Positions 8,724 to 26,660 of a stretch of 32,000 bases of DNA are shown here, piece by piece. The stretch spans positions 53,796-85,795 of the forward strand of contig CABSFU010000002.1 in the NCBI GenBank assembly GCA_902477075.1. The letters run 5' to 3'. Below the pieces are notes generated by a model. That model saw nothing but the letters and a program-made list of their open reading frames with translations. It made no database searches and was not told the origin of the DNA. The stretch's first letter is position 1, and each line of letters begins with the position of its first letter. Source of the DNA: an uncultured Bacillales bacterium. Lineage in GTDB: Bacteria; Bacillota_I; Bacilli_A; RF39; UBA660. Made by a program: the position numbers and the translations under genes.

Positions 8724-9338
8724 ATGAAAAAGGTAATCATAATTAGTATGGTAGTGATTTTGTTCATCATTTTAATTCCAGAACATAAATATAGTAATGA
8801 AGATTTTACTATTAAAAATTATATTAGCAGTATAGATAAGGATAAAGATGCAATGGATGATCAAACAGATATTTTAAATAACGCTAAAAAATATGTGGAG
8901 ACAAAACCAAAATACAAAAGTAAATACTATAATACAGGATATCCTAATGATGGATATGGTGTTTGTACAGATGTAGTAGGATTTTCTCTAAAAGAAGCCG
9001 GATATGATTTAATGGTATTAGTAAATGAAGATGTTAAATCACATCAAGAAAGATATTCCATCACAACCATTGATAAAAATATTGATTTTAGAAGAGTAAA
9101 TAATTTAAATGTTTACTTTAAATATAATTCTATATCTTTAACATTAAATCCAAAAGAAATAGCGGAATGGCAAGGTGGAGATATTGTCGTTTTTCCAAAA
9201 CATATTGGTATTGTTTCAGATAAGAGAAATAGAAAAGGCATTAATTATGTGATTCACCATGCTAATCCATTTCAAATTTGGTATGAGGAAGATATTTTAG
9301 AAAAATATGAAATTATAGGTCATTATAGAATTAGTTAA
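8724..9338 (+). CDS. DUF1287-family protein with N-terminal membrane anchor/signal
   Basis: ATG 8724 after AGGTGAG; hydrophobic N-terminus MKKVIIISMVVILFIILI. GVCTDVV..., IDFRRVNNL and GDIVVF..HIGIVSD resemble DUF1287 from memory. Confidence 0.6.
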   Translation: MKKVIIISMVVILFIILIPEHKYSNEDFTIKNYISSIDKDKDAMDDQTDILNNAKKYVETKPKYKSKYYNTGYPNDGYGVCTDVVGFSLKEAGYDLMVLVNEDVKSHQERYSITTIDKNIDFRRVNNLNVYFKYNSISLTLNPKEIAEWQGGDIVVFPKHIGIVSDKRNRKGINYVIHHANPFQIWYEEDILEKYEIIGHYRIS

Positions 9339-9360
9339 ATAGTCATTTTATAGTCATTTT
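9339..9360 (+). promoter_or_regulatory. Perfect tandem direct repeat 2 x 11 nt (ATAGTCATTTT) over the -35 region of the ABC operon promoter
   Basis: atagtcatttt at 9339-9349 and 9350-9360; TATAAT at 9368-9373; ABC ATPase ATG at 9392. Confidence 0.45.
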
Positions 9361-9391
9361 AAAAATATATAATGTAATTGGAGGGAAAAAT

Positions 9392-10069
9392 ATGGAAATA
9401 TTAAAAGTAGAACATTTAACAAAAACGTATGGAAAAGGAACAACAAAAGTAATTGCTTTAAATGATGTATCTTTTTCTGTAAACAAAGGTGAATTTGTTG
9501 CTATTGTAGGAGCAAGTGGAAGTGGTAAATCTACTTTATTACATTTGCTAGGTGGTGTAGATAGACCAACTAGTGGAAAAGTACTAATCGATGGCAATGA
9601 TATTTACAAAATGAATGATGACAATTTGGCTATTTTTAGGAGAAGACAAATTGGCTTAATTTATCAATTTTACAATTTAATTCCAATATTAGATGTGGAG
9701 GAAAACATCACTTTACCGAGAGATTTAGATAATAATCCTGTAGAGCCAGAAAAATTAGAAGAATTATTAAGTACTTTAGGATTAGAAAAGCGAAGAAAAC
9801 ATCTTCCAAATGAATTGTCTGGAGGACAACAACAAAGAACATCTATTGGTCGAGCATTGATTACCAATCCGTCACTTGTACTTGCTGATGAACCAACAGG
9901 AAATCTAGATTCCAAAGCTAGCGATGAAATTGTTTCTTTACTAAAATCATCTAATAAAAAATATAATCAAACGATTATTATGATTACTCATGACTTGGAA
10001 ATTGCTAAAAATGCAGATAGAATTATTACTATCGAAGATGGAAAAATTATTAGAGATGTGAGAAATTAA
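9392..10069 (+). CDS. ABC transporter ATP-binding protein (MacB/FtsE-like)
   Basis: Walker A GASGSGKST, signature LSGGQQQR, Walker B LVLADEPTGNLD, H-loop ITHD. Confidence 0.9.
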   Translation: MEILKVEHLTKTYGKGTTKVIALNDVSFSVNKGEFVAIVGASGSGKSTLLHLLGGVDRPTSGKVLIDGNDIYKMNDDNLAIFRRRQIGLIYQFYNLIPILDVEENITLPRDLDNNPVEPEKLEELLSTLGLEKRRKHLPNELSGGQQQRTSIGRALITNPSLVLADEPTGNLDSKASDEIVSLLKSSNKKYNQTIIMITHDLEIAKNADRIITIEDGKIIRDVRN

Positions 10070-15145: not shown

Positions 15146-15838
15146 TTAAGCTTCTTGTCTTCCTAAATACTCAATGAATATAGTTACTAATGAATTTGTA
15201 AAATATGAATTAGAATTAATATCTTGCAAATCTGGTGAATTTAAATAGAATGTTTGGTTCCCTAAGTTAACGATTTCGTAGGCATCTTCTGTATTAACAA
15301 TAGAAATAATTCCTTCTGCAACAATTTGATTTGCTATTTCATTATTTTTCCAACAACTTGCTCCTATATAAACATCATCAGTATTTGTTTTTCTAAAACC
15401 AATTGTAATGAAATCGGTTTTTGTATCAAAAGCAGCAGGTAATTTGTGATAAGCAGATATGGTAATGCTTACGTGATAATATCCGATTGTATTAAATTGA
15501 ATCATATTATTATTTAGCGTGACTAAATTCGTCATGTCTAATTCTTTTCTGGTAATGGGAATTTGTTTTAACACAGGAACAATGATGCCATTTTCTTCCA
15601 CTCCATCATTATAAGTCACTAAATAGCTGGATCGAGCATTATTATTTCCTTGCATTCCTTGTGGACCTGTTGGACCAATATCACCTTTTTCTCCCTGCAT
15701 TCCTTGTGGCCCGATATCACCTTTTTCACCTTTAGGACCCGTTGGGCCTATTAAAAGATAGGGATATTTTTTATTAAAATCTATTTTTTTTAAGGCTTTT
15801 TGATATATTTCTTTATCTGAATTGCATTTTTTATTCAT
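15146..15838 (-). CDS. Collagen-like (G-X-Y) repeat protein with globular C-terminal domain, BclA/exosporium-like
   Basis: 11 uninterrupted G-X-Y triplets (GPTGPKGEKGDIGPQGMQGEKGDIGPTGPQGMQ, nt 15650-15748). ATG at 15838 is preceded by AGGAGG; the track start 15886 lacks an RBS. Confidence 0.8.
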   Translation of the reverse strand: MNKKCNSDKEIYQKALKKIDFNKKYPYLLIGPTGPKGEKGDIGPQGMQGEKGDIGPTGPQGMQGNNNARSSYLVTYNDGVEENGIIVPVLKQIPITRKELDMTNLVTLNNNMIQFNTIGYYHVSITISAYHKLPAAFDTKTDFITIGFRKTNTDDVYIGASCWKNNEIANQIVAEGIISIVNTEDAYEIVNLGNQTFYLNSPDLQDINSNSYFTNSLVTIFIEYLGRQEA

Positions 15839-15964
15839 AAAAAACCTCCTTTTAGTATAGAATATGCTTTTAAAATATTGTTGCATAATGTAAAATACTA
15901 TTTTAATGGTTCAAAACTGAAAATAATAAAGTATAATAGATATTAGTGAAGAAAGGAAAAAATT

Positions 15965-16993: not shown

Positions 16994-17872
16994 ATGACAA
17001 ATGAAATAATAAAAGTAGGAACTTTTTTTAGTGGAATAGGATCACCGGAAAAAGCTTTAGAAAGATTAAAAAGTGAAGGACATATTAAAGATTATAAAGT
17101 AGAATTTTTTTCAGAAATAGATAAAAATGCAATTAAAAGCTATTGTGTAATTCATAATGTTGATGAAAGTTTAAATCTCGGTAGTATAACTGATATTAAA
17201 GGTAAAGATTTACCATATTGTGATTTATGGATAGGTGGTTTTCCATGTCAAGATATATCTTGTGCTGGTAAGATGAAAGGATTTGATTTTACAAGTTCTA
17301 CAAGATCATCACTTGGTTGGGAGATGATTAGATTACTTAAAGAAGTAAAAACAAAACCCAAATATGTTATATTTGAAAACGTAGCTATGATAACAAGTAG
17401 GAAATTTAAGGAAACATTAAGCTTATTTAAAGAGGATTTAATAAGTTTAGGATATACATTATATGATCAATTATTAAGCGCTACTGATTATGGAATACCT
17501 CAAACTAGAACGAGGTATTTTTTAATCGCTATTTTAGATAATCAAAAAAATTTTAAATTTCCAGAAAAGATAGAAAATAATATAATTTTAAAAAATTTAT
17601 TAGAGGAATGTGTAGATGAAAAATATTACTTAACAAATTCTAATTATGTAATTAGAGGAGATAAAAGAATATTTAAGCATAAGAATAGAGAAGATATAGA
17701 ATATGAAGTGGATATGAAAAAACACTTAATTGGTGGTGTTTGTGGAATCGATAAACATACAAAGTTTGCTATATCATCAAGATTATTCTCTATTTATGGT
17801 AATTCACCTACATTGACGGCAAGCAATACATCGGATAACAGTAAAATTGTTGTAGAAAGTGAGGCAGAATAA
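16994..17872 (+). CDS. DNA (cytosine-5)-methyltransferase, N-terminal part (motifs I-VIII + target recognition region)
   Basis: Motif I FFSGIGS, motif IV GGFPCQDIS, motif VI FENV, motif VIII QTRTRYFLIA. Stops before motifs IX and X. Confidence 0.85.
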   Translation: MTNEIIKVGTFFSGIGSPEKALERLKSEGHIKDYKVEFFSEIDKNAIKSYCVIHNVDESLNLGSITDIKGKDLPYCDLWIGGFPCQDISCAGKMKGFDFTSSTRSSLGWEMIRLLKEVKTKPKYVIFENVAMITSRKFKETLSLFKEDLISLGYTLYDQLLSATDYGIPQTRTRYFLIAILDNQKNFKFPEKIENNIILKNLLEECVDEKYYLTNSNYVIRGDKRIFKHKNREDIEYEVDMKKHLIGGVCGIDKHTKFAISSRLFSIYGNSPTLTASNTSDNSKIVVESEAE

Positions 17873-18042
17873 TGAGAATCAGAAGGTTAACACCAAAAGA
17901 AACGTGGAGGTTAATGGGATTTGATGATAATGATTTTGAAAAAGCGAGTAAAGTTTGTAGTGAAACTAATCTTTATCATCAAGCGGGAAATTCTATTGTA
18001 GTGAATGTAATGTATTCAATTTTAAAAGAATTACTAAAATAA
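17872..18042 (+). CDS. DNA (cytosine-5)-methyltransferase, C-terminal part (motifs IX-X), separate 56-aa ORF
   Basis: MRIRRLTPKETWRLMGFDD (motif IX) and AGNSIVVNV (motif X). ATG overlaps the upstream TAA (TAATG) in a different frame. Below the ORF-track size cutoff. Confidence 0.75.
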   Translation: MRIRRLTPKETWRLMGFDDNDFEKASKVCSETNLYHQAGNSIVVNVMYSILKELLK

Positions 18043-18049
18043 AAAGATG

Positions 18050-18313
18050 CTATTTTGCATCCTTATTATTCTCCATAAGTTTCTCATAACCATCAAAAAA
18101 ATTTCTGATATCAAAATTATATTTTTGCGCTAAAAAGAAAAGGGTATCCAGTGAAATTCCTGTATCTACATTTGGACTTTCTATGTGAGATATAAAACTT
18201 CTACTCATATCAGTATCTTCTGCCATCTTTTCTTGTGATTTACCAATTATATCTTTTCTTATGGATTTCATATTTTGTCCTATAAGGGCGAAAAGTTCAT
18301 AAGTATTTTTCAC
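18050..18313 (-). CDS. Xre-family HTH regulator
   Basis: 87 aa; HTH_3 pattern IRKD..KSQEKMAEDTDMSRSFISHIES. Confidence 0.75.
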   Translation of the reverse strand: MKNTYELFALIGQNMKSIRKDIIGKSQEKMAEDTDMSRSFISHIESPNVDTGISLDTLFFLAQKYNFDIRNFFDGYEKLMENNKDAK

Positions 18314-18455: not shown

Positions 18456-18719
18456 TTATCGCCTAGGAATACGACGATTTTCAATATTTTTCCTTTTCTC
18501 AAATAATTGGAAAAGTTCAACATTAAGTGTAGTTGCGATGTGATCAATATAGTCGATTCTAGTATTTCTTTTAGCATTTTCTAAATTAGATACATAAGTA
18601 GGTGTAGTTCCAAGTTTATCGGCAAAATCTTCTTGAGACCAACCTTTTTGTAATCTATAATACACAATATTATTTGCTAAAATATTACGAGCATTTGATT
18701 TCAATTTTATTGTCATCAC
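18456..18719 (-). CDS. Xre/cI-like HTH repressor
   Basis: 87 aa; YRLQKGWSQEDFADKLGTTPTYVSNLENAKRN is a classic HTH_3 signature. Divergent from the plus-strand island operon. Confidence 0.8.
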   Translation of the reverse strand: MMTIKLKSNARNILANNIVYYRLQKGWSQEDFADKLGTTPTYVSNLENAKRNTRIDYIDHIATTLNVELFQLFEKRKNIENRRIPRR

Positions 18720-18880: not shown

Positions 18881-19369
18881 ATGAACAAAGAAAATTTAAA
18901 TAGATATGTTAAAGAAATATCTGATATTTTAGACGGCAAAATTAAAATTATTACCTCAATTGAATATTACTATGATTTAGAAAAACTAACATCTTCACTA
19001 AAAGATTTATCTGATATAGAAGCTGAAAATGTTTTAGAACAATTGATTAATGAAAAACTAGAACAAATTAAGAAAAGTGATAAAGCAGATAAATTTAGAG
19101 AAAATAATAGACTTGTGGATGATGTAACTGAATTCTTCTATGATGATAAAGAAGAAGATGGTGCTGTTGTTGAAGAAGGAAGTTGCATAGCAACAGATTT
19201 AGTTTTAAAAACAATAGGTATAAATGGTAGAAAAATTGAATTACCAGTAAAGATTTCATATATAAAAGAATATTGTATAAGTAATATTATTGAGGAAAAG
19301 GATATAAGAAAAACGTTGTTGTGGATAGTTTTAGAACTATCAGTTGTAAGTTATTTTTTAAACAATTAA
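18881..19369 (+). CDS. Hypothetical acidic protein
   Basis: 162-aa ORF with RBS (AAAAGGAG) and a following hairpin. No recognisable motif. Confidence 0.5.
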   Translation: MNKENLNRYVKEISDILDGKIKIITSIEYYYDLEKLTSSLKDLSDIEAENVLEQLINEKLEQIKKSDKADKFRENNRLVDDVTEFFYDDKEEDGAVVEEGSCIATDLVLKTIGINGRKIELPVKISYIKEYCISNIIEEKDIRKTLLWIVLELSVVSYFLNN

Positions 19370-19420: not shown

Positions 19421-19449
19421 ACACTTCTAATACTATGGAAGTGTTTTAT
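19421..19449 (+). terminator. Hairpin/terminator between the hypothetical gene and avd
   Basis: ACACTTC (19421-19427) / GAAGTGT (19438-19444) then TTT. It overlaps the ORF-track start 19435, which favours the internal ATG 19492 for avd. Confidence 0.5.
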
Positions 19450-19491: not shown

Positions 19492-20079
19492 ATGTTACAA
19501 GTTAGTAGAGCCAACAATCTTAAAGTTCCAAAAGCATTAGAAAATACTATTGATAATTTAAATAGTGTTGATGACAAAGTTGCAGTAAAACAAGCTCTAG
19601 CAACAGCAAATAATCAAAAATTTAATAAGAATAAAGTAAAAGAAAATGTTGAAAAAGATGGTGAATTAGAAAAAATTGAAAAAATTCCATTTAATGCAAA
19701 TGATTTAATGGTTATTACAGTTGTAAAAAAATTAGGAGCTTATATAATTGCAGTTACTGAAAAATCTCCAGCTAAATATAGAGGGGTGTTTGTTAATCGC
19801 ATGCAAAATTTATCATTAGAAATATTAGAGTTGCTTTTACAAGCAAATTTTGTAAGAATAGATTGCTTAGATAATAAAAAAAAGAGAGAAGAATATCAAA
19901 AGGATGCAATAATAAAGTTAAAAATGTTAGGTTATATATCAATGGTAGCAGAAAATTCAAATTGTATTTTATCTAGACAATTTAAACAAATCTCTATACA
20001 AATTGGTGAATCTATTAACTTGATAGCAGCATGGAAGAAAAGCGATGATTCTAGATGGAACAGTCGTACAAATAATTAA
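19492..20079 (+). CDS. avd: DGR accessory variability determinant (Avd-like four-helix-bundle protein) with N-terminal extension
   Basis: The C-terminal part of about 120 aa (VITVVKKLGAYIIAVTEKSPAKYRGVFVNRMQNLSLEILELLLQAN...IAAWKKS) matches the Avd / 23S-IVS-protein helical pattern from memory. Sits immediately upstream of TR and RT. Start could be 19435 or 19492. Confidence 0.7.
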   Translation: MLQVSRANNLKVPKALENTIDNLNSVDDKVAVKQALATANNQKFNKNKVKENVEKDGELEKIEKIPFNANDLMVITVVKKLGAYIIAVTEKSPAKYRGVFVNRMQNLSLEILELLLQANFVRIDCLDNKKKREEYQKDAIIKLKMLGYISMVAENSNCILSRQFKQISIQIGESINLIAAWKKSDDSRWNSRTNN

Positions 20080-20124
20080 AGGATTTTAAACCGAAAGGTT
20101 TTTAATTAAGTAAATAATTTATTC

Positions 20125-20449
20125 TAGCGGCTTTGCTTGTGTTGCGCCTTCGGCGCAGGGCTTTGTCTTTGTCCGCGCGGTCAATAAGAATGGTAATAGG
20201 AACAACAAATATAGATACAAACGCAATGGTGCTGTTCGCCCAGATTTGCTTTTGAAGAGATTATAAAATCTAAAAAACAGGTCAGAGAAATATATTTTAA
20301 GTAAAATATATCAGAACTTTAAAGCAAAGGAATTATTTACTTTTCTAACCGCTATAATAGTGCGGTGGATAAATTTTAGTGCTCACACCAACAACGATAT
20401 GTATGTATTTTTGAAGGTTAAAAAGGAGCACTTTTTTGGTGGTGATTAT
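20125..20449 (+). ncRNA. DGR template RNA region (GC-rich leader, TR, and about 200-nt spacer up to the RT start)
   Basis: Noncoding gap between avd and RT containing the TR. Hairpins GCGCC-ttc-GGCGC (20144-20156) and ACCGC-tataatagt-GCGGT (20348-20366); GTGCTC (20379-20384) / GAGCAC (20426-20431). Ends are not determinable from sequence. Confidence 0.45.
20170..20249 (+). repeat. DGR template repeat (TR), 80 nt
   Basis: Aligns over its full length with 21774..21854. All 53 non-A positions are identical and 12 of 27 adenines differ. In the target's frame it reads VRAVNKNGNRNNKYRYKRNGAVRPDL, rich in AAY/AAR codons. Confidence 0.95.
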
Positions 20450-21478
20450 ATGAATTTAGAGAATATATTTAGTTTTGAAAACTTATATGATGCACATAAA
20501 AAATGTAGAAAATCAAAACAACATAAAGGTGAAGTTATAAGATTTGAAGTAAACATTTCAGAGAATATTTATAAATTACAAAAAGAAATAATATCAAGGA
20601 AATATAAAGTAGGAAAATATAAGGAATTTATAATATATGAACCAAAAGAAAGATTAATACAAGCTCTTCCATATAGAGATAGAATTGTATTAAGATGTTT
20701 TTGCGATAATGTTTTAATTCCAAAGATTGAAAAAAAACTAATAAATGATAATGTTGCTTGTAGAAAAGGCAAAGGAACAAAATATGGAATGGATAGATTG
20801 AAATATTTTTTGCAAAAAGAATATTTTAAGTATAATGATAATAAAGTCTATTATTTGAAATGTGATATTCGCAAATATTTTCCTAGTATTAACCATAATA
20901 TTTTAATAAATAATCTAAAAAGGATTGACTTTTCAGATGATGAATTTTGGTTTATAAAAAAAATTATAAATGAACAACCTGATAATTTAGAAAGGGGTTT
21001 AGCATTAGGTAATCAATCAAGTCAATGGTTTGCTTTATACTATCTTGATAAAATTGATAGATTGATCAAAGAAGAATTGCAAATTAAAAGTTACGTAAGA
21101 TATATGGATGATTTTATTTTACTTCATCGTGATAAAAAGTATTTACAATATTGTTTAGAAAAAATAAATAAAGTTTGTATTGAAAAATTAGATTTGGAAC
21201 TTAATCAAAAAACACAAATAGGACTTGCATATAATGGAATTGATTTTTTAGGTTTTAATCATATTTTAACAAATAGTGGTAAGGTTATTAGAAAACTTAG
21301 GTTTTCATCTAAGCAGAGAATGAGAAAACATATTAAAACCATAAGAAAACTTAAAGATAAATCCATAATTGATGAAAAATATGTTGGTATGAGAATTAAC
21401 GCTTTTAAAGCACATTTAAAACATTCTAATGAAAAAAGTATGGACAAATTATTATCCAATTTAGATAAAAAAATATAA
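20450..21478 (+). CDS. DGR reverse transcriptase
   Basis: RT motifs PYRDRIVLR, DIRKYFPSINH, LALGNQSSQWFALYYL (the DGR-type [IL]GxxxSQ signature) and YVRYMDDFILL (YMDD). ATG 20450 is preceded by GGTGGTGA. Flanked by the TR/VR pair. Confidence 0.93.
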   Translation: MNLENIFSFENLYDAHKKCRKSKQHKGEVIRFEVNISENIYKLQKEIISRKYKVGKYKEFIIYEPKERLIQALPYRDRIVLRCFCDNVLIPKIEKKLINDNVACRKGKGTKYGMDRLKYFLQKEYFKYNDNKVYYLKCDIRKYFPSINHNILINNLKRIDFSDDEFWFIKKIINEQPDNLERGLALGNQSSQWFALYYLDKIDRLIKEELQIKSYVRYMDDFILLHRDKKYLQYCLEKINKVCIEKLDLELNQKTQIGLAYNGIDFLGFNHILTNSGKVIRKLRFSSKQRMRKHIKTIRKLKDKSIIDEKYVGMRINAFKAHLKHSNEKSMDKLLSNLDKKI

Positions 21479-21543: not shown

Positions 21544-23467
21544 ATGAATAATCAAGATTTAACTTTATTGTCGGAAGGACAAATTTGGGGTAATGAAAAA
21601 GAATCTCAATTAGAAGTAATGAGAAAGTATGGAACAAAAGCTGCAATCACAGATTTATGTGTATTGACAGGTAGCTATTTATGCGAAGATACAGATTATA
21701 ATATTGATGAAGATAGTTCTTTAAAAGGCAGAACTAGTTGGTTTTGGACTAGATCTGATGATAACGATAATGATGTCCGCGCGGTCATTAGGGCATGGTA
21801 GTAGGTACGACAGGTATAGATACAGACGCGATGGTGCTGTTCGCCCAGCTTTGCAATCTTCTGTAATCTTTTCTCAAATCTCCCCGAACAGAGTGAGGGG
21901 ATACAACGGAACTGAAGAAGTAGAATATGGAGAATATCCACAATATGCTGCTGATTCAAGAATGCAAGGTATATTAGAATCAGAATATAATAGAGGAATG
22001 AATAAAACCGGAAGAAGTTATACATTTGATTCAGTAAAATATGACGATTATGATACAGGATTCAAGCCAGTAACTTATGAAGAATATGAATATCAAGGAA
22101 AGAAATATATTCGTATAAGAGCAAATTCTGATTTTGGTGGAAATAAATTTAAACTTTCAAATGGTGTTGAATATAGAGATGGCGATTGCGTTTGGGTAGA
22201 AGTATCACCTGTAAAATGGTTAATTGATGATAGAACAGGAATATTAGTTTCAAAAATAGGGTTAGTTTCTGGAATAAGATTTCTTGATAGAAATCATAAT
22301 TATAAAGGTGATTTTAGTAGAACAGAAATGAAGGAATATCTTGATAAATATATGATACGCGATTTAACTCAAACAGCAACATTTACTCGTGTTCAAGATA
22401 TGACTCCAGAAGAAAAAGCTCAATTTGAAGAAGAAAGAAAACAAGCTGAAAAAAGAAGAAATCCTTATGGTTTAAAATTTGGACAAGTTAGTGAAGAAGA
22501 AATTATTCAGGGTGCAATAGAAAGTGGTGTAGCAGTATTCTTGCATGGACCTTCATCAGAAGGTAAATCTGCAAGAGTAAAACAAATAGATCCTACTTGT
22601 GAAATAATTTATCTAAGAAATGCAACACCAGAAAGTTTAAATGGTAAAAGTGTTTACAATCAAGCAACAGGTGAAATGATAGATGTTAAACCAAGTTGGC
22701 TTAAAAAGTTAGAAGAAAAATGTGAAAAAGAACCAGACAGATTTCATATTTTATTTTTAGATGAAATTACAAATGCACTACCAAGTATTCAAGGTATAGC
22801 ATTTAATATAGTTTTAGATAGAGAAGTTAATGGTATTTGGAAATTGCCAGAAAACGCTAGAATAGTTGCAGCCGGTAATGATATGAAAGATTCATTAGCT
22901 GCAAATCAATTAGCAGAACCATTATTTAATAGATTTGCTCATGTTTATATTAAAACAACTACTGAAAGTTGGTTAAAATGGGCAAGTGAACATAATATAC
23001 ATCCTGCTATTTATTCATATATTGCTTATAAAAAAGGTGAAACATTAAGAAGTAAATATGATGGTGAAAAACCTAACGCAGATCCAAGAAAATGGGAAAT
23101 GGCTTCAAAAATGTTATATGCAACAGGTAGTCCAGAAATGTTAAGAGCGTTAGTAGGAGAGGATATAACAAGAGAATTTGTACAATTTTGTAATCAACAA
23201 GTTATAACATTAGATGATGTAATAAATGAAAATTATACCCAAAGAGACATACAAGCATTAAATACAGCAGAAAGATATGCAACAACTATGGGGTTATCAC
23301 AAGTTGATGATAACAACTTAGAAAAAGTAAGAGGTTTTGTTGCAGGATTAGGAGCAGAGTTTGGAGCAATTTTTGATGCTTTATGGACACATGGCGATGA
23401 AAGCAAATTAGAAAGACTTGCAGAAGCAAAACTTGCTGAAATGTCAGAAGGAGGTATAAGAAGATAA
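21544..23467 (+). CDS. DGR target (variable) protein: N-terminal VR-bearing domain fused to a MoxR/AAA_5-like ATPase; as sequenced it is interrupted by a 1-nt insertion inside the VR
   Basis: ORFs 21529..21801 and 21758..23467 are offset by +1. The TR frame is continuous across the junction, so removing 1 nt near 21793-21795 restores a protein of about 640 aa. Walker A GPSSEGKS (22547-22570), Walker B ILFLDE (22748-22765), sensor-1 IVAAGN, LFNRF. No signal peptide or TM segment visible. Confidence 0.8.
21774..21854 (+). repeat. DGR variable repeat (VR), 81 nt
   Basis: Cognate of TR with 12 A-to-N substitutions plus one extra nucleotide. The invariant GC-rich 3' end GGTGCTGTTCGCCCAG is a candidate IMH (initiation of mutagenic homing) site. 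Confidence 0.95.
21881..21901 (+). other. Short GC hairpin 27 nt downstream of VR
   Basis: TCCCC-gaacagagtga-GGGGA. DGRs often carry a hairpin/cruciform just 3' of VR; this one is weak (5 bp, 11-nt loop). Confidence 0.3.
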
Positions 23468-23859
23468 TGGAAAATAAGAAAGAAATATTACTATCATATA
23501 TAAGAGCAAATGTTGCACCAATTTTAGTTGATTTTATATCTGGTAATGATATAAATGGTGCAGTTGTATTACCCGCCAATGTTGATGTTAAAGAGTTAAA
23601 TGGTCATTATGATGGAGCTGATTTTATGCCACCAAAATGGCTTAATGAAATATTAAGTACAAATGCAAGTAAAATTTTAGTAATTGATAAAATTGATGCA
23701 ATAGCAAAAGAAGAACAATTAAAATTCTGTGAATTGTTAGAACACAGAAAAATATCTACATTTGAATTACCAAAAAGTTGTGTGATAATTGTAACAGCAA
23801 ACGAAATAAATAAAGATAAGATAAACGAAGAAATATTCTCATTAGTTGCACGAATTTGA
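23467..23859 (+). CDS. Small protein resembling a degenerate AAA+ half-domain (no Walker A)
   Basis: 130 aa; ILVIDKIDAI (Walker-B-like hhhhD), EEQLKFCELLEHRKI and CVIIVTAN (sensor-1-like) follow the AAA_5 order. The ATG overlaps the target gene's stop (TAATG). Confidence 0.6.
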   Translation: MENKKEILLSYIRANVAPILVDFISGNDINGAVVLPANVDVKELNGHYDGADFMPPKWLNEILSTNASKILVIDKIDAIAKEEQLKFCELLEHRKISTFELPKSCVIIVTANEINKDKINEEIFSLVARI

Positions 23860-23869
23860 GGTATAAGTT

Positions 23870-25468
23870 ATGAAATATGATATTGCAGCATTAAAAAGAA
23901 AAATGCTTGTTAAATATCCCTTTTTTGGGAGTGTAGTAGCAAGTGTAGGTTATAAAGAAAACAAAGATATACCAACCGCAGGTACAGATGGAGAAACAAT
24001 TTACTATAATCCTAAATATTTAGAAAGTTTAAGTGTTGAAGAACAAACTTTTATATTTGCTCATGAAGTATGTCATATTGCATTCAATCATATATTAAGA
24101 AGTGAAGGTAAAGATCCAGAGTTATGGAATATTGCTACTGATGGTGTTATTAATCAATTTTTAAAACGAGATGGATTAAAAATGGCACCGGGTGGTGTTG
24201 ATATGGCAGAAGCTATTAATTATGATGCTGAACAGTTATATGAAAAACTATTACAAGAAAAACAACAAAGACAACAGCAACAACAAAATGGACAAGGTAA
24301 TAGTCAAAGCGAACAAGGTAATCAGCAACAAAATCAACAACAAAGCAGTGGTAGTAGTCAAGGCGAAAATGGTCAACAACAATCTCAATCACAACAACAA
24401 ACTGGCGATTCACAAAATCAAGAACAAAATCAAGAAGACCAGAAACAAAATAGTGGTGCAGGACAAAGTGGAGATGAACAACAACAATCTCAACAACAAA
24501 ATAGTTCTAATAGTGGAAACTCACAAGAACAAGATAAGCAATCACAAGAACAAAGCGGTGGTGGATCTGAGAAAGATTCACAAGAAGAAGATAAATCAAA
24601 GCAAGATGTTGGACATGATACTCACAGTATGTGGGAGCAAGCAGTTAAAAAGCACAAAGAGCAACAAGAAAAATCTGATAAAAAAGAGAGCTTATTAGAT
24701 AAACTTTTAGGAAAAGATAAAAAAGAAAAAGAAAAGAGTGAACTAGAAAAGAAACAAGAAGAACTTGAAGGCATGGGAGAAAAAGATGCTTTTAAGAAAA
24801 ATCTTGAAGATAAGAAAAAGCAACTTGAAGAATTAAAAGAAGCAATTTCTAAACAAGCATCACAAGCAGGAACTTCAACAAATAGAGATGTTAGAACAGT
24901 TAATGATATTGGTACTGCAAAACCAATAGTTGATTGGCGATATGTTTTGAGAGAAGCAATTAAATATGATGTAGATTGGTCATATAAAAATGCTACATTA
25001 GAAGATGGAGTTGTTACTGCTAATTTAGAAGAACAACCAATGCCAGAAACTGAAATTGTTCTTGATACAAGTGGTTCAATAAATGAAGTATTATTAAAGA
25101 ACTTTTTAAGAGAATGTAAAAATATATTACAACATACTAAATTAAAAGTAGGATGTTTTGATACAGAATTTTATGGATTTCATGAAATTAGAACGGAAGA
25201 AGATATAGAAAATATGCGATTTGAAGGTGGTGGAGGAACTGACTTTGATGTCGCTGTAGGCGCTTTTTCAAGAAGAGTTGAAAATAAAATAATATTTACT
25301 GATGGAGATGCTTCAATGCCAGATATGTCAATTGATGCAATATGGATAGTATTTGGTGGTGAAAAAATTAGTCCAAAAGGTGGTAAAGTAATTCACATTA
25401 CATCAGAACAATTAGATAGGTTATATTCATACGAAATTGAAAGTGAAACTAAAGGTAGATCAAGATAA
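23870..25468 (+). CDS. Putative Zn-metallopeptidase (DUF2201_N-like, HExxH) + VWA-like domain protein with long Q/S/E/K-rich linker
   Basis: N-terminal KYPFFGSVV...PTAGTDGETIYYNP...FAHEVCHIAFNH (HEVCH at 24062-24076). C-terminal VWA-like region with DTSGS MIDAS motif (25064-25078), GGGGTDF and IFTDGDA. RBS GAGG precedes the start. Confidence 0.8.
   Translation: MKYDIAALKRKMLVKYPFFGSVVASVGYKENKDIPTAGTDGETIYYNPKYLESLSVEEQTFIFAHEVCHIAFNHILRSEGKDPELWNIATDGVINQFLKRDGLKMAPGGVDMAEAINYDAEQLYEKLLQEKQQRQQQQQNGQGNSQSEQGNQQQNQQQSSGSSQGENGQQQSQSQQQTGDSQNQEQNQEDQKQNSGAGQSGDEQQQSQQQNSSNSGNSQEQDKQSQEQSGGGSEKDSQEEDKSKQDVGHDTHSMWEQAVKKHKEQQEKSDKKESLLDKLLGKDKKEKEKSELEKKQEELEGMGEKDAFKKNLEDKKKQLEELKEAISKQASQAGTSTNRDVRTVNDIGTAKPIVDWRYVLREAIKYDVDWSYKNATLEDGVVTANLEEQPMPETEIVLDTSGSINEVLLKNFLRECKNILQHTKLKVGCFDTEFYGFHEIRTEEDIENMRFEGGGGTDFDVAVGAFSRRVENKIIFTDGDASMPDMSIDAIWIVFGGEKISPKGGKVIHITSEQLDRLYSYEIESETKGRSR
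24254..24875 (+). repeat. Low-complexity coding tract (CAA/CAG-rich Q/S/N/E segment, then K/E-rich segment)
   Basis: aa ~129-245 are QQRQQQQQNGQGNSQSEQGNQQQNQQQSSGSSQ...; aa ~255-335 are KEKEKSELEKKQEELE... The tract also generates the spurious ORFs 24192..24698 and 24216..24413. Confidence 0.8.
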
Positions 25469-25477
25469 AAGATAAAA

Positions 25478-25510
25478 AACATAATTCGTGGTTTTGAATT
25501 ATGTTTTTTT
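25478..25510 (+). terminator. Strong terminator ending the DGR/AAA/VWA transcription unit
   Basis: AACATAATTC (25478-25487) / GAATTATGTT (25496-25505), 10-bp stem, then T-run. Confidence 0.8.
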
Positions 25511-25565
25511 ATATACAAAAATAAAGTAAAAAATATATGTATTATATTATGTGAAAGGAGGAAAC

Positions 25566-26660
25566 ATGATAGAAACAATTGATAAAATTTATTCTAGAAA
25601 AGATGGAAGATTTGAAATTAGGTATCATTATGGATATAAGGATGATGGTACATCAAATTATAAATCTGTTTATGGTAATAGTGAGACTGAAGTAATAAAA
25701 AATTATCATAAAACTATAGATGATTTAATAAGTAAAAATGATTTACTTATATATGATAAAACTTATATTGGTTATTACATATATTTGTGGTTAAATAATT
25801 CAAAAATAAAAAATAAGAAATCAACTTATTCAAATTATCAATATACTATTAAATCTAGGATTATTCCAAAGTTTGCAAGTGTTAAGAAAAAAACAATTTC
25901 TTTGGAATTAATTAATAAATTTACAGCGGATTTGTTAAGTGAGGGTTTGGTTGAAAAAAGTGTTAAAGATATTTTAATTATATTACAGCAAATCTTGAAA
26001 TATGGTAATATTAATATCAAAATTCCAATGCCAAAAGTACCTAAAAATGAAATTCAAATTTTTAAAAAAGATGAACAAGCAAAACTTGAAGAAGAATTAC
26101 TAAAAAATATGAACGAAACAACTTTTGGTATTTATTTTTGTCTTTATACAGGTTTAAGAATTGGTGAAATATGTGCGTTACAATGGAAAGATATTGATTT
26201 AAAAAACAAAAAAATTAAAGTAAAGAAAACTTTAATTAGAATTAAAAACCCAGACGAAAATGTAAAGAAAAAAACAATTGTAATAATTGATGAACCAAAA
26301 TCTGCATCTTCTATAAGAGAAATCCCAATACCTGATTTCTTAATTTCTATTTTAACTAAATTAAGTGTTAATGTAACTCCGGAAACTTTTTTAGTATCTG
26401 GATATGAAAAGTTTGTTGAAACAAGAACATATTTCAATAGATATAAAAAGATACTTGAGCAGCTTAATTTAGAAATATATAATTTTCATGCTTTAAGGCA
26501 TACATTTGCTACCAGATGTATTGAAAATGGCTGTGATCCAAAAACTTTAAGTGAAATATTAGGACATTCAAGTGTAAAAATAACATTAGAAAGATATGTT
26601 CATCCTAATTATGAAAATAAGGTTATTATGATGAATCAACTAAAACCATTATTTTTTTAA
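25566..26660 (+). CDS. int: Tyrosine recombinase / phage-type integrase
   Basis: N-terminal arm-binding-like SRKDGRFEIRYHYGYKDDG; catalytic region TGLRIGEICAL, HALRHTFAT, LGHSSVKITLERYVH. ATG 25566 follows GAAAGGAGG. Confidence 0.9.
   Translation: MIETIDKIYSRKDGRFEIRYHYGYKDDGTSNYKSVYGNSETEVIKNYHKTIDDLISKNDLLIYDKTYIGYYIYLWLNNSKIKNKKSTYSNYQYTIKSRIIPKFASVKKKTISLELINKFTADLLSEGLVEKSVKDILIILQQILKYGNINIKIPMPKVPKNEIQIFKKDEQAKLEEELLKNMNETTFGIYFCLYTGLRIGEICALQWKDIDLKNKKIKVKKTLIRIKNPDENVKKKTIVIIDEPKSASSIREIPIPDFLISILTKLSVNVTPETFLVSGYEKFVETRTYFNRYKKILEQLNLEIYNFHALRHTFATRCIENGCDPKTLSEILGHSSVKITLERYVHPNYENKVIMMNQLKPLFF

Follow-up and report, generated by a model that had tools for sequence, protein, structure and literature searches.

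A diversity-generating retroelement rewrites the N-terminal head of a MoxR-class ATPase in a predicted cytoplasmic three-gene module of gut RF39-like Bacilli

The window, a 32,000-nucleotide stretch of DNA from an uncultured Bacillales bacterium of the RF39 lineage (contig CABSFU010000002.1), contains a complete diversity-generating retroelement (DGR; Avd, TR and reverse transcriptase, RT) upstream of three tightly packed genes (Table 1). The core of the locus is a three-gene module of the phage N4 gp24/gp25 type, predicted to be cytoplasmic and consisting of a MoxR-class ATPase, a small inactive AAA paralog and a zincin-linker-VWA partner. The ATPase has gained a domain of some 285 residues at its N-terminus, hereafter the head, in which the DGR rewrites approximately 11 to 14 codons of a hairpin/loop (residues ~82–98) in part of the lineage, yielding thousands of variant receptors among RF39-like Bacilli of the human gut. 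The chances are about even that the module is a hypervariable intracellular recognition machine, composed of a DGR-aimed head, an ATPase ring and a VWA/peptidase partner. Comparable recognition machines are so far known only from descriptions in other lineages of bacteria, where the layout differs. Gene order and coordinates from the end of the RT gene to ORF3, including the overlap at 23467, are the same as in a preliminary description of this DNA.

Table 1. Features of the DGR and the downstream module (positions in the window)
Feature	Position	Strand	Remarks
162-aa ORF, candidate accessory gene	18881–19369	+	co-occurrence with DGR
avd-like accessory gene of the DGR	19492–20079	+	longest ORF starts at 19435
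Hairpin AAACC-GAAA-GGTTT, avd/TR interval	20088–20101	+	compensatory changes
TR	20170–20249	+	direct repeat with VR
Hairpin AGATT-ATAA-AATCT, directly 3' of TR	20258–20271	+	compensatory changes
DGR RT, intact, YMDD	20450–21478	+	longest ORF starts at 20360
DGR target	21544–23467	+	variable domain ~1–285, linker, MoxR-class AAA+ ~316–640; frameshifted at 21791–21793
VR	21774–21854	+	TR/VR alignment; 81 nt
ORF2, 130-aa degenerate AAA core paralog	23467–23859	+	hhalign to target family
ORF3, zincin metallopeptidase-linker-VWA	23870–25468	+	Pfam, PHROG, motifs
AT-rich hairpin and T-run	25474–25510	+	15-bp stem, -13.5 kcal/mol, z -2.5

The Avd-like protein matches phrog_3206 ("Avd protein of DGR", E 1.1e-13) and scores under the cut-offs of Pfam bAvd (E 1.1e-4) and NCBIfam DivGenRetAVD (E 3e-5). 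The RT matches Pfam RVT_1 (56.9 bits, cut-off 29.6) and phrog_1423 (E 1.3e-106). The TR, which is kept conserved in the DGR-bearing loci, is translated in frame as V R A V N K N G N R N N K Y R Y K R N G A V R P D L. The two hairpins on either side of it are probably RNA elements of the DGR, judging from compensatory changes in 4/5 pairs of the upstream (10 DGR loci) and 3/5 pairs of the downstream one. Homologs of the 162-aa ORF were found in eight other loci, all of which encode Avd and RT; searches of Pfam, PHROG and PADLOC with this ORF gave no match, and its membership in the DGR as an accessory gene is uncertain.

TR and VR share ~85% identity. All substitutions in the 80-nt core are located at TR adenines, and the only other difference is a single extra G in the VR, which accounts for its length. 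Similar patterns were seen in other RT-bearing loci, with 12 mismatches at A and none elsewhere in L009, 11 at A in L062, and 12 at A plus one at C in L057. The VR codes for target residues ~78–104. A survey of VR diversity in relatives, as suggested in the preliminary description, revealed hypervariability exactly at the adenine-containing TR codons: 41 VR alleles occur among 120 proteins with 93–97% identity to the target, and protein entropy in these close homologs is 1.5–2.5 bits at AAx codons and ≤0.2 bits at most adenine-free codons, with peaks confined to 11 AAx/TAx/AGx codons. A natural control is provided by a lineage in which the RT is broken into 82 and 187 aa (L001–L006) and the VR is frozen without a working RT; a single VR allele is common to 49 of the 120 proteins, and one protein of this lineage was found on 77 contigs. 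A different fixed allele (18/120 proteins) is present in the DGR-less lineage L084.

The C-terminal half of the target is a MoxR-class AAA+ ATPase, as described before. The motifs FLHGPSSEGKS and xFLDE are present and conserved, Walker A and Walker B are kept in the locus copies of the ATPase, and the PHROG match is phrog_1297 (E 4.4e-48). With an AlphaFold2 model of the target (pLDDT 91), the best Foldseek matches of the ATPase were the NorQ hexamer, NorQ-NorD complexes and CbbQ2 (E 1e-9 to 1e-8, target TM 0.63–0.67). A confident model of the head (N-terminal 286 residues, pLDDT 92) had no significant match among solved structures (PDB) and viral predicted structures (BFVD), C-type-lectin DGR proteins included, and a C-type-lectin fold was not demonstrated. 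The proposed likeness of the VR region to the C-type-lectin DGR scaffold is weakly supported; similarity was seen to the VR-bearing C-terminal end of DUF6273 (sub-threshold, E 0.013–0.022) and to the tentaclin of phage nd12 (31% identity across 70 residues by hhalign, E 3e-4). The first 300 aa of the target are 33–95% identical across loci, compared to 59–99% for the ATPase, and tandem arrays of two to four copies occur in L031, L039 and L084. With both observations counted as support, the head may evolve under diversifying pressure, a part of the explanation to which, as a whole, about even chances are given.

The two downstream genes correspond to the earlier assignments. ORF2, an AAA fragment devoid of Walker A as described, contains DK/Dx in place of the Walker B DE and aligns to residues 316–465 of the target family (hhalign probability 96.3%, E 1.7e-9); its mean column identity is 62% (18 homologs) and its ATG is overlapped by the target stop. 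In ORF3, a zincin domain (HEVCH) is followed by a disordered, Q/E/K/S-rich linker of ~200 aa and a VWA-like domain whose MIDAS motif reads DTSGS. Matches over the Pfam cut-offs were obtained with DUF2201_N (E 5.6e-39) and the VWA-like DUF2201 (E 7e-14), in agreement with the predicted HExxH peptidase and VWA domains, and the PHROG match is phrog_1314 (E 6.3e-67). Alignments with JWAlpha gp36, a protein whose annotation points to similarity with N4 gp25, cover both domains, and ORF3 is assigned by sequence to the phage N4 gp25 family. HExxH and DTSGS are invariant in 61 ORF3 homologs, i.e. those recovered with both motifs, with a spacer of 211–562 aa. No 19-residue window with a Kyte-Doolittle mean of 1.6 and no signal-peptide-like N-terminus was detected in the target, ORF2 or ORF3, which for the target had already been noted.

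ORF2 and ORF3 are located downstream of the ATPase in 55 of the 60 genomes with sufficient downstream DNA, and ORF3 without ORF2 in four more. The three genes are co-conserved to ~45–50% identity, and in P0183 head, ATPase and VWA are fused in one chain. The DGR is present in 13/56 genomes with the trio, remnants in 11/56, and 32/56 have none; the module can therefore do without DGR diversification. The hosts are gut RF39-like Bacilli, in which the trio is flanked by housekeeping genes at three different places, and the fusion was found on 1 of 2.9 million viral contigs. The hairpin downstream of ORF3 is probably the terminator and the right-hand end of the conserved unit; a terminator near 25478 had been proposed, and a simple terminator scan misses the hairpin because its stem is poor in G-C pairs. 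Homology with all other loci stops at ~25441–25488. The adjoining integrase (25551–26660) lies beyond this point and in no other locus was it found, so that it was rejected as a member of the unit.

The architecture, previously regarded as undescribed, is related to published systems (PMC7159879, PMC10907252, PMC5758913, PMC7824862). DGR-diversified FGS/CLec domains occur in VMAP/MoxR-vWA ternary conflict systems (Kaur et al. 2020, PMC7159879; Dore et al. 2024, PMC10907252), where DGR-diversified sensors were proposed for cyanobacteria and Thiohalocapsa. These systems likewise combine a MoxR-class AAA+ ATPase, a vWA protein and peptidase activity, one component has a ligand-binding domain diversified by a cis-encoded DGR, a cytoplasmic location is predicted for several targets, and the interpretation as sensor, transducer and effector is the one used here. 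They differ in that a CLec of the FGE-sulfatase type at the C-terminus of the vWA protein serves as the variable domain, whereas the VR lies near the N-terminus of the ATPase in the window; in that a trypsin or caspase resides on a separate VMAP protein instead of a zincin fused to the VWA protein; in the third component, which in the window is a degenerate AAA fragment; and in their hosts, multicellular cyanobacteria and gammaproteobacteria rather than small-genome gut Bacilli. DGR targets fused to an AAA_5/Midasin-related ATPase are also described for CPR/DPANN organisms, which have reduced genomes as well (Wu et al. 2018, PMC5758913; ref. 20 in PMC10907252). In the available text of both sources, and compared by description, these proteins have a C-terminal CLec or unclassified VR, and a VWA-peptidase partner is not reported. 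Since DGR sensors in MoxR/vWA systems and AAA-fused CPR targets are already published, the locus does not represent a new category.

According to the abstract of PMC13036017, a VWA finger is threaded through the pore of NorQ, which also remodels the linker of NorD. NorQ/NorD and CbbQ/CbbO resemble the module in the ATPase structure and in a VWA/MIDAS partner with a linker acted on by the ring; unlike the module, they function in metal insertion or Rubisco activation, have fixed clients and lack a variable head, a peptidase and a DGR. In a recognition machine, the ligand of the head would be cytoplasmic and changing, most probably a phage protein or one from another mobile element, and its binding would be coupled to the ATPase ring. 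By analogy to NorQ/NorD, the ring would engage the VWA domain and pull the linker of the partner, thereby switching the attached peptidase or passing the bound ligand to it. The DGR would allow the host to re-aim the receptor with motor and effector unchanged; DGR-less lineages may diversify via tandem paralogs and a fast-evolving head. An anti-phage or immune function is plausible. The C5 methylase and RM control-protein-like regulators that accompany the DGR, and the published proposals of DGR-diversified sensors in MoxR/vWA systems, count in favour of the recognition machine. Against this reading, phage homologs of the pair were proposed as assembly chaperones and not as defence (PMC7824862), PADLOC had no model or match for the target, ORF2 or ORF3, the head has no significant structural match, the copy in the window is frameshifted, and the majority of genomes with the trio have no DGR.

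Jumbo phages encode a MoxR AAA+ ATPase together with a metallopeptidase-vWA protein (Iyer et al. 2021, PMC7824862). In the N4 gp24/gp25 pair (PHROGs 1297 and 1314), ATPase core and DUF2201_N/DUF2201 partner are homologous to those of the module and in the same order, with small ORFs separating both genes. A 300-aa head is absent from the phage ATPases: in 750 phage records, the listed tblastn matches start at residues 256–331 and cover the C-terminal half only, and no DGR is annotated in the two phage regions inspected. Virion assembly and processing is the role proposed for the pair (PMC7824862). In line with proposals for the pairs of jumbo and N4-like phages and for that of Acidianus two-tailed virus (MoxR/VWA), the module might be a dedicated chaperone or maturation machine that folds, assembles or proteolytically processes a client, its head choosing among variable clients (e.g. 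a polymorphic surface or prophage-derived structure) without sensing invaders. Membership of the ATPase and ORF3 in the PHROG families of the N4 gp24/gp25-like proteins fits this explanation, as do the maturation roles of all characterised MoxR/VWA pairs (NorQD, CbbQO, RavA-ViaA) and the majority of trios without a DGR. It is nevertheless considered rather unlikely: no conserved client gene lies beside the trio, the flanks of which vary between genomes, a hypermutated head evolving faster than the motor and tandem paralogs are unexpected for a housekeeping chaperone, and the fusion is nearly absent from viral contigs.

In gut Firmicute phages, tentaclins and other DGR targets with DUF6273 carry their VRs at the C-terminal end of DUF6273 (PMC10743442, PMC11792537). 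The locus shares with that of the nd12 tentaclin the nearest phage RT (41% identity), the order avd-TR-RT-target with the VR near the 5' end, and the aligned scaffold motif W.W.R(S/T)...V..V...G......(G)VRP(A/L)L. The likeness is detectable over just ~60–70 residues, with none at head residues 116–280, and tentaclins, unlike the target, serve phages in receptor binding or decoration, contain Ig domains and have no ATPase. From such a phage, whose DGR first diversified a DUF6273-type receptor-binding domain, the unit could have been inherited as cargo serving a mobile element in superinfection exclusion, anti-defence or host takeover. It is found at different chromosomal sites, a C5 methylase and regulators similar to RM control proteins travel together with the DGR, one copy adjoins prophage tail and lysis genes, and the integrase is adjacent in the window. 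This origin and role are judged improbable, given the single viral contig with the fusion, the confinement of the integrase to this locus, and the majority of trios, which are embedded among housekeeping genes without DGR or mobility genes.

The extra G of the VR, in GGG at 21791–21793, shifts the frame by +1 and leads to a stop at 21799–21801. As a consequence, the target is split as sequenced (ORFs 21544–21801 and 21758–23467), and this copy may be non-functional. The 640-aa protein, reconstructed with its VR position in the preliminary description, is obtained only once this base is removed; the best 120 of 3388 target homologs are intact in reading frame (640–651 aa). That truncation at residue 85 marks a dead gene in a decaying relic, like relatives that lost the RT, is very unlikely, even though DGR decay is frequent in the family (RT remnants in 11 loci, broken RT in L001–L006): Avd, TR, RT (YMDD), ORF2 and ORF3 are all intact in the window, and the lesion affects one base of a G-run at the mutagenised site and may reflect an error in sequencing or assembly, or else a slip during retrohoming; PMC12875486 discusses slippage of a DGR RT on its template. 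With the TR in frame, the next retrohoming event would repair it.

In the window, a DGR of functional type is directed at a hairpin/loop in the N-terminal part of a cytoplasmic MoxR-class ATPase, which occurs in fixed genetic linkage with an inactive AAA paralog (ORF2) and a metallopeptidase-VWA protein (ORF3). The unit covers 19.4-25.5 kb and comprises an Avd-like gene, a non-coding stretch bearing the TR, the reverse transcriptase (RT), the target, ORF2 and ORF3, all on the forward strand. The RT is of DGR type and adjoins the repeats, which form the sole long direct repeat of the region apart from a low-complexity run in ORF3. The Avd-like gene product scored below the cut-offs of both Pfam bAvd (23.1 bits, cut-off 40) and NCBIfam DivGenRetAVD (24.3 bits, cut-off 80). 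In-frame translation of the TR gives V R A V N K N G N R N N K Y R Y K R N G A V R P D L; such Asn/Lys-rich coding is typical of DGR templates. The two hairpins flanking the TR show compensatory pairing over ten loci, which fits a structured DGR RNA, and they are probably structural elements of this RNA. An additional G+C-rich hairpin is kept in close relatives only. A search of the whole window against Rfam returned three tRNAs only and no known RNA family at the DGR, and PADLOC assigned the RT to generic RT models only.

Features of the DGR unit and its surroundings (positions in the window)
Feature	Position	Strand	Evidence or remark
Collagen-like triple-helix-repeat ORF	15146-15886	-	just left of the island
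C5 cytosine methylase	16994-18042		split into 292 + 56 aa
RM control-protein-like HTH gene	18050-18313	-
RM control-protein-like HTH gene	18456-18719	-
162-aa ORF	18881-19369		no family match
Avd-like gene	19492-20079	+	phrog_3206, E 1.1e-13
Hairpins on either side of TR	20088-20101 and 20258-20271	+	kept over ten DGR loci, with compensatory base changes
G+C-rich hairpin	20136-20161
TR	20170-20249	+	direct repeat with VR
DGR reverse transcriptase	20450-21478	+	RVT_1 above Pfam cut-off; phrog_1423, E 1.3e-106; YMDD motif
Target ORF	ATG at 21544	+	head + AAA+ ATPase once repaired
VR	21774-21854	+	direct repeat with TR
ORF2 (130 aa)	23467-23859	+	ATG overlaps target stop
ORF3 (532 aa)	23870-25468	+	DUF2201_N (zincin, HEVCH) + DUF2201 VWA-like (DTSGS)
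ORF3 linker	24240-24870	+	residues about 125-335
Integrase	25551-26660

In the 80-nt core of the TR/VR alignment, all substitutions are located at TR adenines, and the VR contains one inserted G in addition (GGG at 21791-21793). Because of this extra G, the target as sequenced ends at 21799-21801 and resumes out of frame (ORF 21758-23467). The target is truncated at codon 85 in this assembly and intact in 120 of 120 close homologs; removal of one G yields a protein of 640 aa. The extra G may reflect an error of sequencing, a true null allele or a slip in retrohoming, the last reparable by the next retrohoming.

A search with the repaired target retrieved 3388 relatives, the best 120 of which (93-97% identical, intact, 640-651 aa) were used for VR statistics. 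Among these 120 proteins, the highest-entropy alignment columns are 11 VR codons. The entropy follows the TR codon, with 1.5-2.5 bits at AAx codons, 0.7-1.4 bits where one adenine is present in the first two positions and not more than 0.2 bits at most adenine-free codons. The adenine-specific TR/VR pattern was seen in at least ten related loci; in the RT-bearing loci L009, L062 and L057, mismatches at adenines accounted for 12/12, 11/11 and 12/13, respectively. In six further loci (L001-L006, about 9081-9937, compared with 20360-21478 of the window), the RT is split into 82 and 187 aa and Avd is truncated. The VR allele of this lineage is fixed (49 of the 120 proteins, one of which occurs on 77 contigs), and these loci are a natural RT-dead control for DGR activity. 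The lineage is widespread in the human gut. Another fixed VR allele, present in 18 of the 120 proteins, belongs to the lineage of L084, which lacks any DGR. In the lineage of the window, the DGR is genuine and active and its VR is diversified in nature: the VR occurs as 41 distinct alleles in the 120 close relatives and stays frozen in loci with a broken RT or none.

The C-terminal half of the target matched phrog_1297 (E 4.4e-48) and, weakly, the Pfam families AAA_5 and AAA. Its description as an AAA_5/MoxR-like ATPase held for the MoxR class by structure and not by sequence profile, the target remaining below the AAA_5 cut-off (E 0.012, 16 bits, cut-off 22); relatives of the target score AAA_5 at E 1e-6 to 3e-10. 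When the AlphaFold model of the target (pLDDT 91) was searched with Foldseek, the best 19 matches were NorQ (18) and CbbQ2 (1) at E 1e-9 to 1e-7. Both are MoxR-class ATPases with VWA partners. The GPSSEGKS (Walker A) and FLDE (Walker B) motifs are kept in target copies adjoining ORF2 and ORF3. ORF2 (mean column identity 62% over 18 homologs) matched residues 316-465 of the target family in a profile-profile comparison (probability 96%, E 1.7e-9), lacks the P-loop and has the Walker B DE changed to DK. Because of this match to the AAA core and the missing P-loop, the earlier call of a Walker-A-less AAA fragment is correct. Homology of ORF2 to JWAlpha gp35, a small ORF between the phage genes, was discarded (BLASTP E 0.31).

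Both DUF2201_N and DUF2201 were detected above the Pfam cut-offs in ORF3, confirming the peptidase and VWA domains described from the sequence. Each of the 61 ORF3 homologs recovered contains HExxH and DTSGS. A Q/E/K/S-rich, low-complexity linker with internal repeats separates the two domains; in homologs this spacer is 211-562 residues long, the flanking catalytic motifs being invariant. ORF3 belongs to phrog_1314 (E 6.3e-67) and is similar to gp36 of the N4-like phage JWAlpha, with one match per domain (E 1e-17 and 5e-14). JWAlpha gp36 is annotated as similar to N4 gp25 and the adjoining JWAlpha ATPase as similar to N4 gp24. Based on both family matches and their adjacency, target and ORF3 are an ATPase and metallopeptidase-VWA pair of the phage N4 gp24/gp25 type. 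In agreement with the cytoplasmic location claimed initially, neither a signal peptide nor a hydrophobic segment was found in the target, ORF2 or ORF3.

The N-terminal head (residues 1-285) was modelled as one unit (pLDDT 92, pTM 0.90), in which the VR forms strands 78-81, 87-90 and 101-104 and the intervening loops. A C-type-lectin fold, to whose DGR scaffolds the region around the VR was likened in the preliminary description, was not demonstrated: neither PDB nor BFVD gave a Foldseek match to the head model at E<0.1, and a profile search against PDB sequences returned noise only, with nothing relevant. A DUF6273 phage protein was second in the BFVD listing (probability 0.33). Residues 47-103 aligned with the last 60 positions of Pfam DUF6273 below threshold (E 0.013-0.022, 15-16 bits, cut-off 23.5), and the head has no sequence membership in Pfam DUF6273, FGE-sulfatase or Mtd/TvpA. 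With hhalign, the VR scaffold of the head profile was aligned to the tentaclin of phage nd12 (31% identity over 70 residues, E 3e-4, probability 39%); no similarity to this protein was found in the other 160 residues of the head. Phage nd12 also encodes the phage RT closest to the DGR RT (41% identity) and shares with the window the avd-TR-RT-target order and a 5'-proximal VR. Judged from these alignments, the VR scaffold is probably of DUF6273 type. A circular permutation of DUF6273, with head residues 116-280 as its N-terminal half, was rejected, since permuted sequences of five members gave no Pfam extension and hhalign of residues 116-280 with the N-terminal part of the nd12 tentaclin gave E 0.33. 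Across the loci, identities range from 33 to 95% for the head compared to 59-99% for the ATPase. Among relatives from the protein-representative search, three (P0202, P0223 and P0251) have the head joined to non-ATPase helical C-termini, and others are stand-alone heads of ~300 aa.

A scan of 185,579 species-level genomes yielded 253 encoding stretches. Almost all of the 75 best loci stem from MAGs of uncultured gut 'Bacilli' or 'Tenericutes' (CAG:605, CAG:417, Candidatus Faecisoma and a 1.46-Mb chromosome among the hosts); a few hosts are Clostridia, including the cultured Zhenpiania hominis, whose strain BX12 (L077) has a version of the locus that lacks the DGR. Within the 60 loci whose downstream DNA spans 2 kb or more, ORF2 and ORF3 are located directly 3' of the ATPase in 55 and ORF3 alone in 4, so that ORF3 adjoins the ATPase in 59/60, at trio identities falling to about 45%. 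One relative (P0183, 882 aa) even combines head, ATPase and DUF2201 VWA-like domain in a single polypeptide. The trio is kept with and without a DGR: upstream of it, a full RT was found in 13, RT remnants in 11 and neither in 32 of the 56 loci that extend 2.5 kb or more in this direction. In L040, a methylase remnant without Avd or RT lies directly upstream of the target, which points to DGR loss by deletion. Tandem arrays of two to four full-length head-ATPase paralogs were detected in three loci (L031, 2663-12113; L039, 7980-17448; L084, 9986-17047). No DGR is located near the arrays of L031 and L084. L039 has a DGR, with TR/VR mismatches that are not adenine-specific and four copies identical in the VR-region sequence.

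In every locus, homology to the window stops at about 25441-25488, where a probable AT-rich terminator hairpin is located. The integrase, which had led to the proposal of an integrase-bearing island, lies outside the unit and is common to none of at least 80 other loci. On the other side, the methylase gene (split also in L082) and the RM control-protein-like genes travel with the DGR cassette in L009, L027, L029, L046 and L082; no restriction enzyme was recognised beside them. The 162-aa ORF occurs in eight other loci, each with Avd and RT, possibly as an accessory gene of the DGR or as cargo of the island. The genes flanking the unit are housekeeping genes and differ between genomes. The head-ATPase fusion was found on one of 2.9 million viral contigs, beside prophage tail and lysis genes.

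Cytoplasmic sensors that combine DGR diversification with an NTPase are already a published concept, and so is an association with MoxR and vWA. DGR sensors in MoxR/vWA systems are described in PMC7159879 and PMC10907252, and AAA/Midasin-fused DGR targets in CPR bacteria in PMC5758913 and PMC10907252. Large DGR surveys report C-terminal VRs in targets and, for most targets of cellular origin, signal peptides or TM segments (PMC8144416); N-terminal VRs are rare among DGR targets (PMC5758913). The VMAP ternary conflict system (Kaur et al. 2020) has a third component with a VMAP domain carrying trypsin, caspase or cyclase, unlike the AAA-core fragment encoded by the third gene here, and its variable FGS domain is the C-terminus of the vWA protein, whereas the VR in the window is on the ATPase. 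No VMAP-type domain was found in the target, ORF2 or ORF3 with Pfam profiles, which are not those of Kaur et al. Literature searches on DUF2201, and on RF39 together with DGR, gave nothing relevant. New are the layout (VR near the N-terminus of the ATPase itself, zincin-VWA partner, AAA-fragment third gene), the family (N4 gp24/gp25 type) and the host group (human-gut RF39-like Bacilli).

The head is probably a ligand-binding module. By analogy with NorQ/NorD (PMC13036017), the ring probably acts on the linker of the VWA partner, and the trio may serve in conflict with phages or mobile elements. A more far-reaching reading, which we regard as possible and rather doubtful, is that of a minimal DGR-programmed intracellular immune receptor of gut bacteria with small genomes: the head would recognise cytoplasmic phage or plasmid proteins, and the MoxR ring would activate the VWA-tethered zinc protease or feed the ligand to it. 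A role in conflict is favoured by the hypermutated and fast-evolving head, the paralog arrays in DGR-free genomes, the varying chromosomal location with RM-like genes nearby and the precedent of DGR sensors in MoxR/vWA systems (PMC7159879 and PMC10907252). It is disfavoured by the absence of a defence-database match for the trio and by the phage homologs, which have been proposed as chaperones; for the MoxR and metallopeptidase-vWA pair of jumbo phages, a role in assembly or processing was proposed by Iyer et al. (PMC7824862). If the trio acts as a chaperone, the locus would still be the first indication of the substrates of the N4 gp24/gp25 pair, which is widespread.

If the module is an immune receptor, three genes of phage origin would carry an anticipatory, antibody-like recognition layer that differs in both layout and lineage from the VMAP/STAND systems known in multicellular bacteria. 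The cytoplasmic DGR 'antigen sensors' inferred so far belong to multicellular cyanobacteria and to purple sulfur bacteria, are large proteins with many domains and are hard to test; the locus is a compact three-gene version with the variable head directly on the motor. Anticipatory hypervariable immunity would then reach unicellular, reduced-genome gut commensals, and the trio would be a tractable model of a MoxR ring coupling ligand recognition to a VWA-tethered protease. The locus also offers VR alleles that number thousands in metagenomes of the human gut, RT-dead natural controls, DGR-free relatives diversifying via paralog arrays and phage homologs (N4 gp24/gp25) in culturable systems.

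Annotation of the locus as a defence system was not obtained, since no PADLOC-DB 2.0 family matched a protein of the trio at E<=0.01 and the neighbours are the methylase and RM control-protein-like regulators only. An Amidoligase_2 gene, located with a 267-aa unknown gene directly upstream of the DGR-less trio of L084 (8193-9972), was also considered as a conserved neighbour; the pairing recurs in L014 only (two loci), so Amidoligase_2 is no general partner. Just left of the island in the window, a collagen-like triple-helix-repeat ORF is encoded on the opposite strand.
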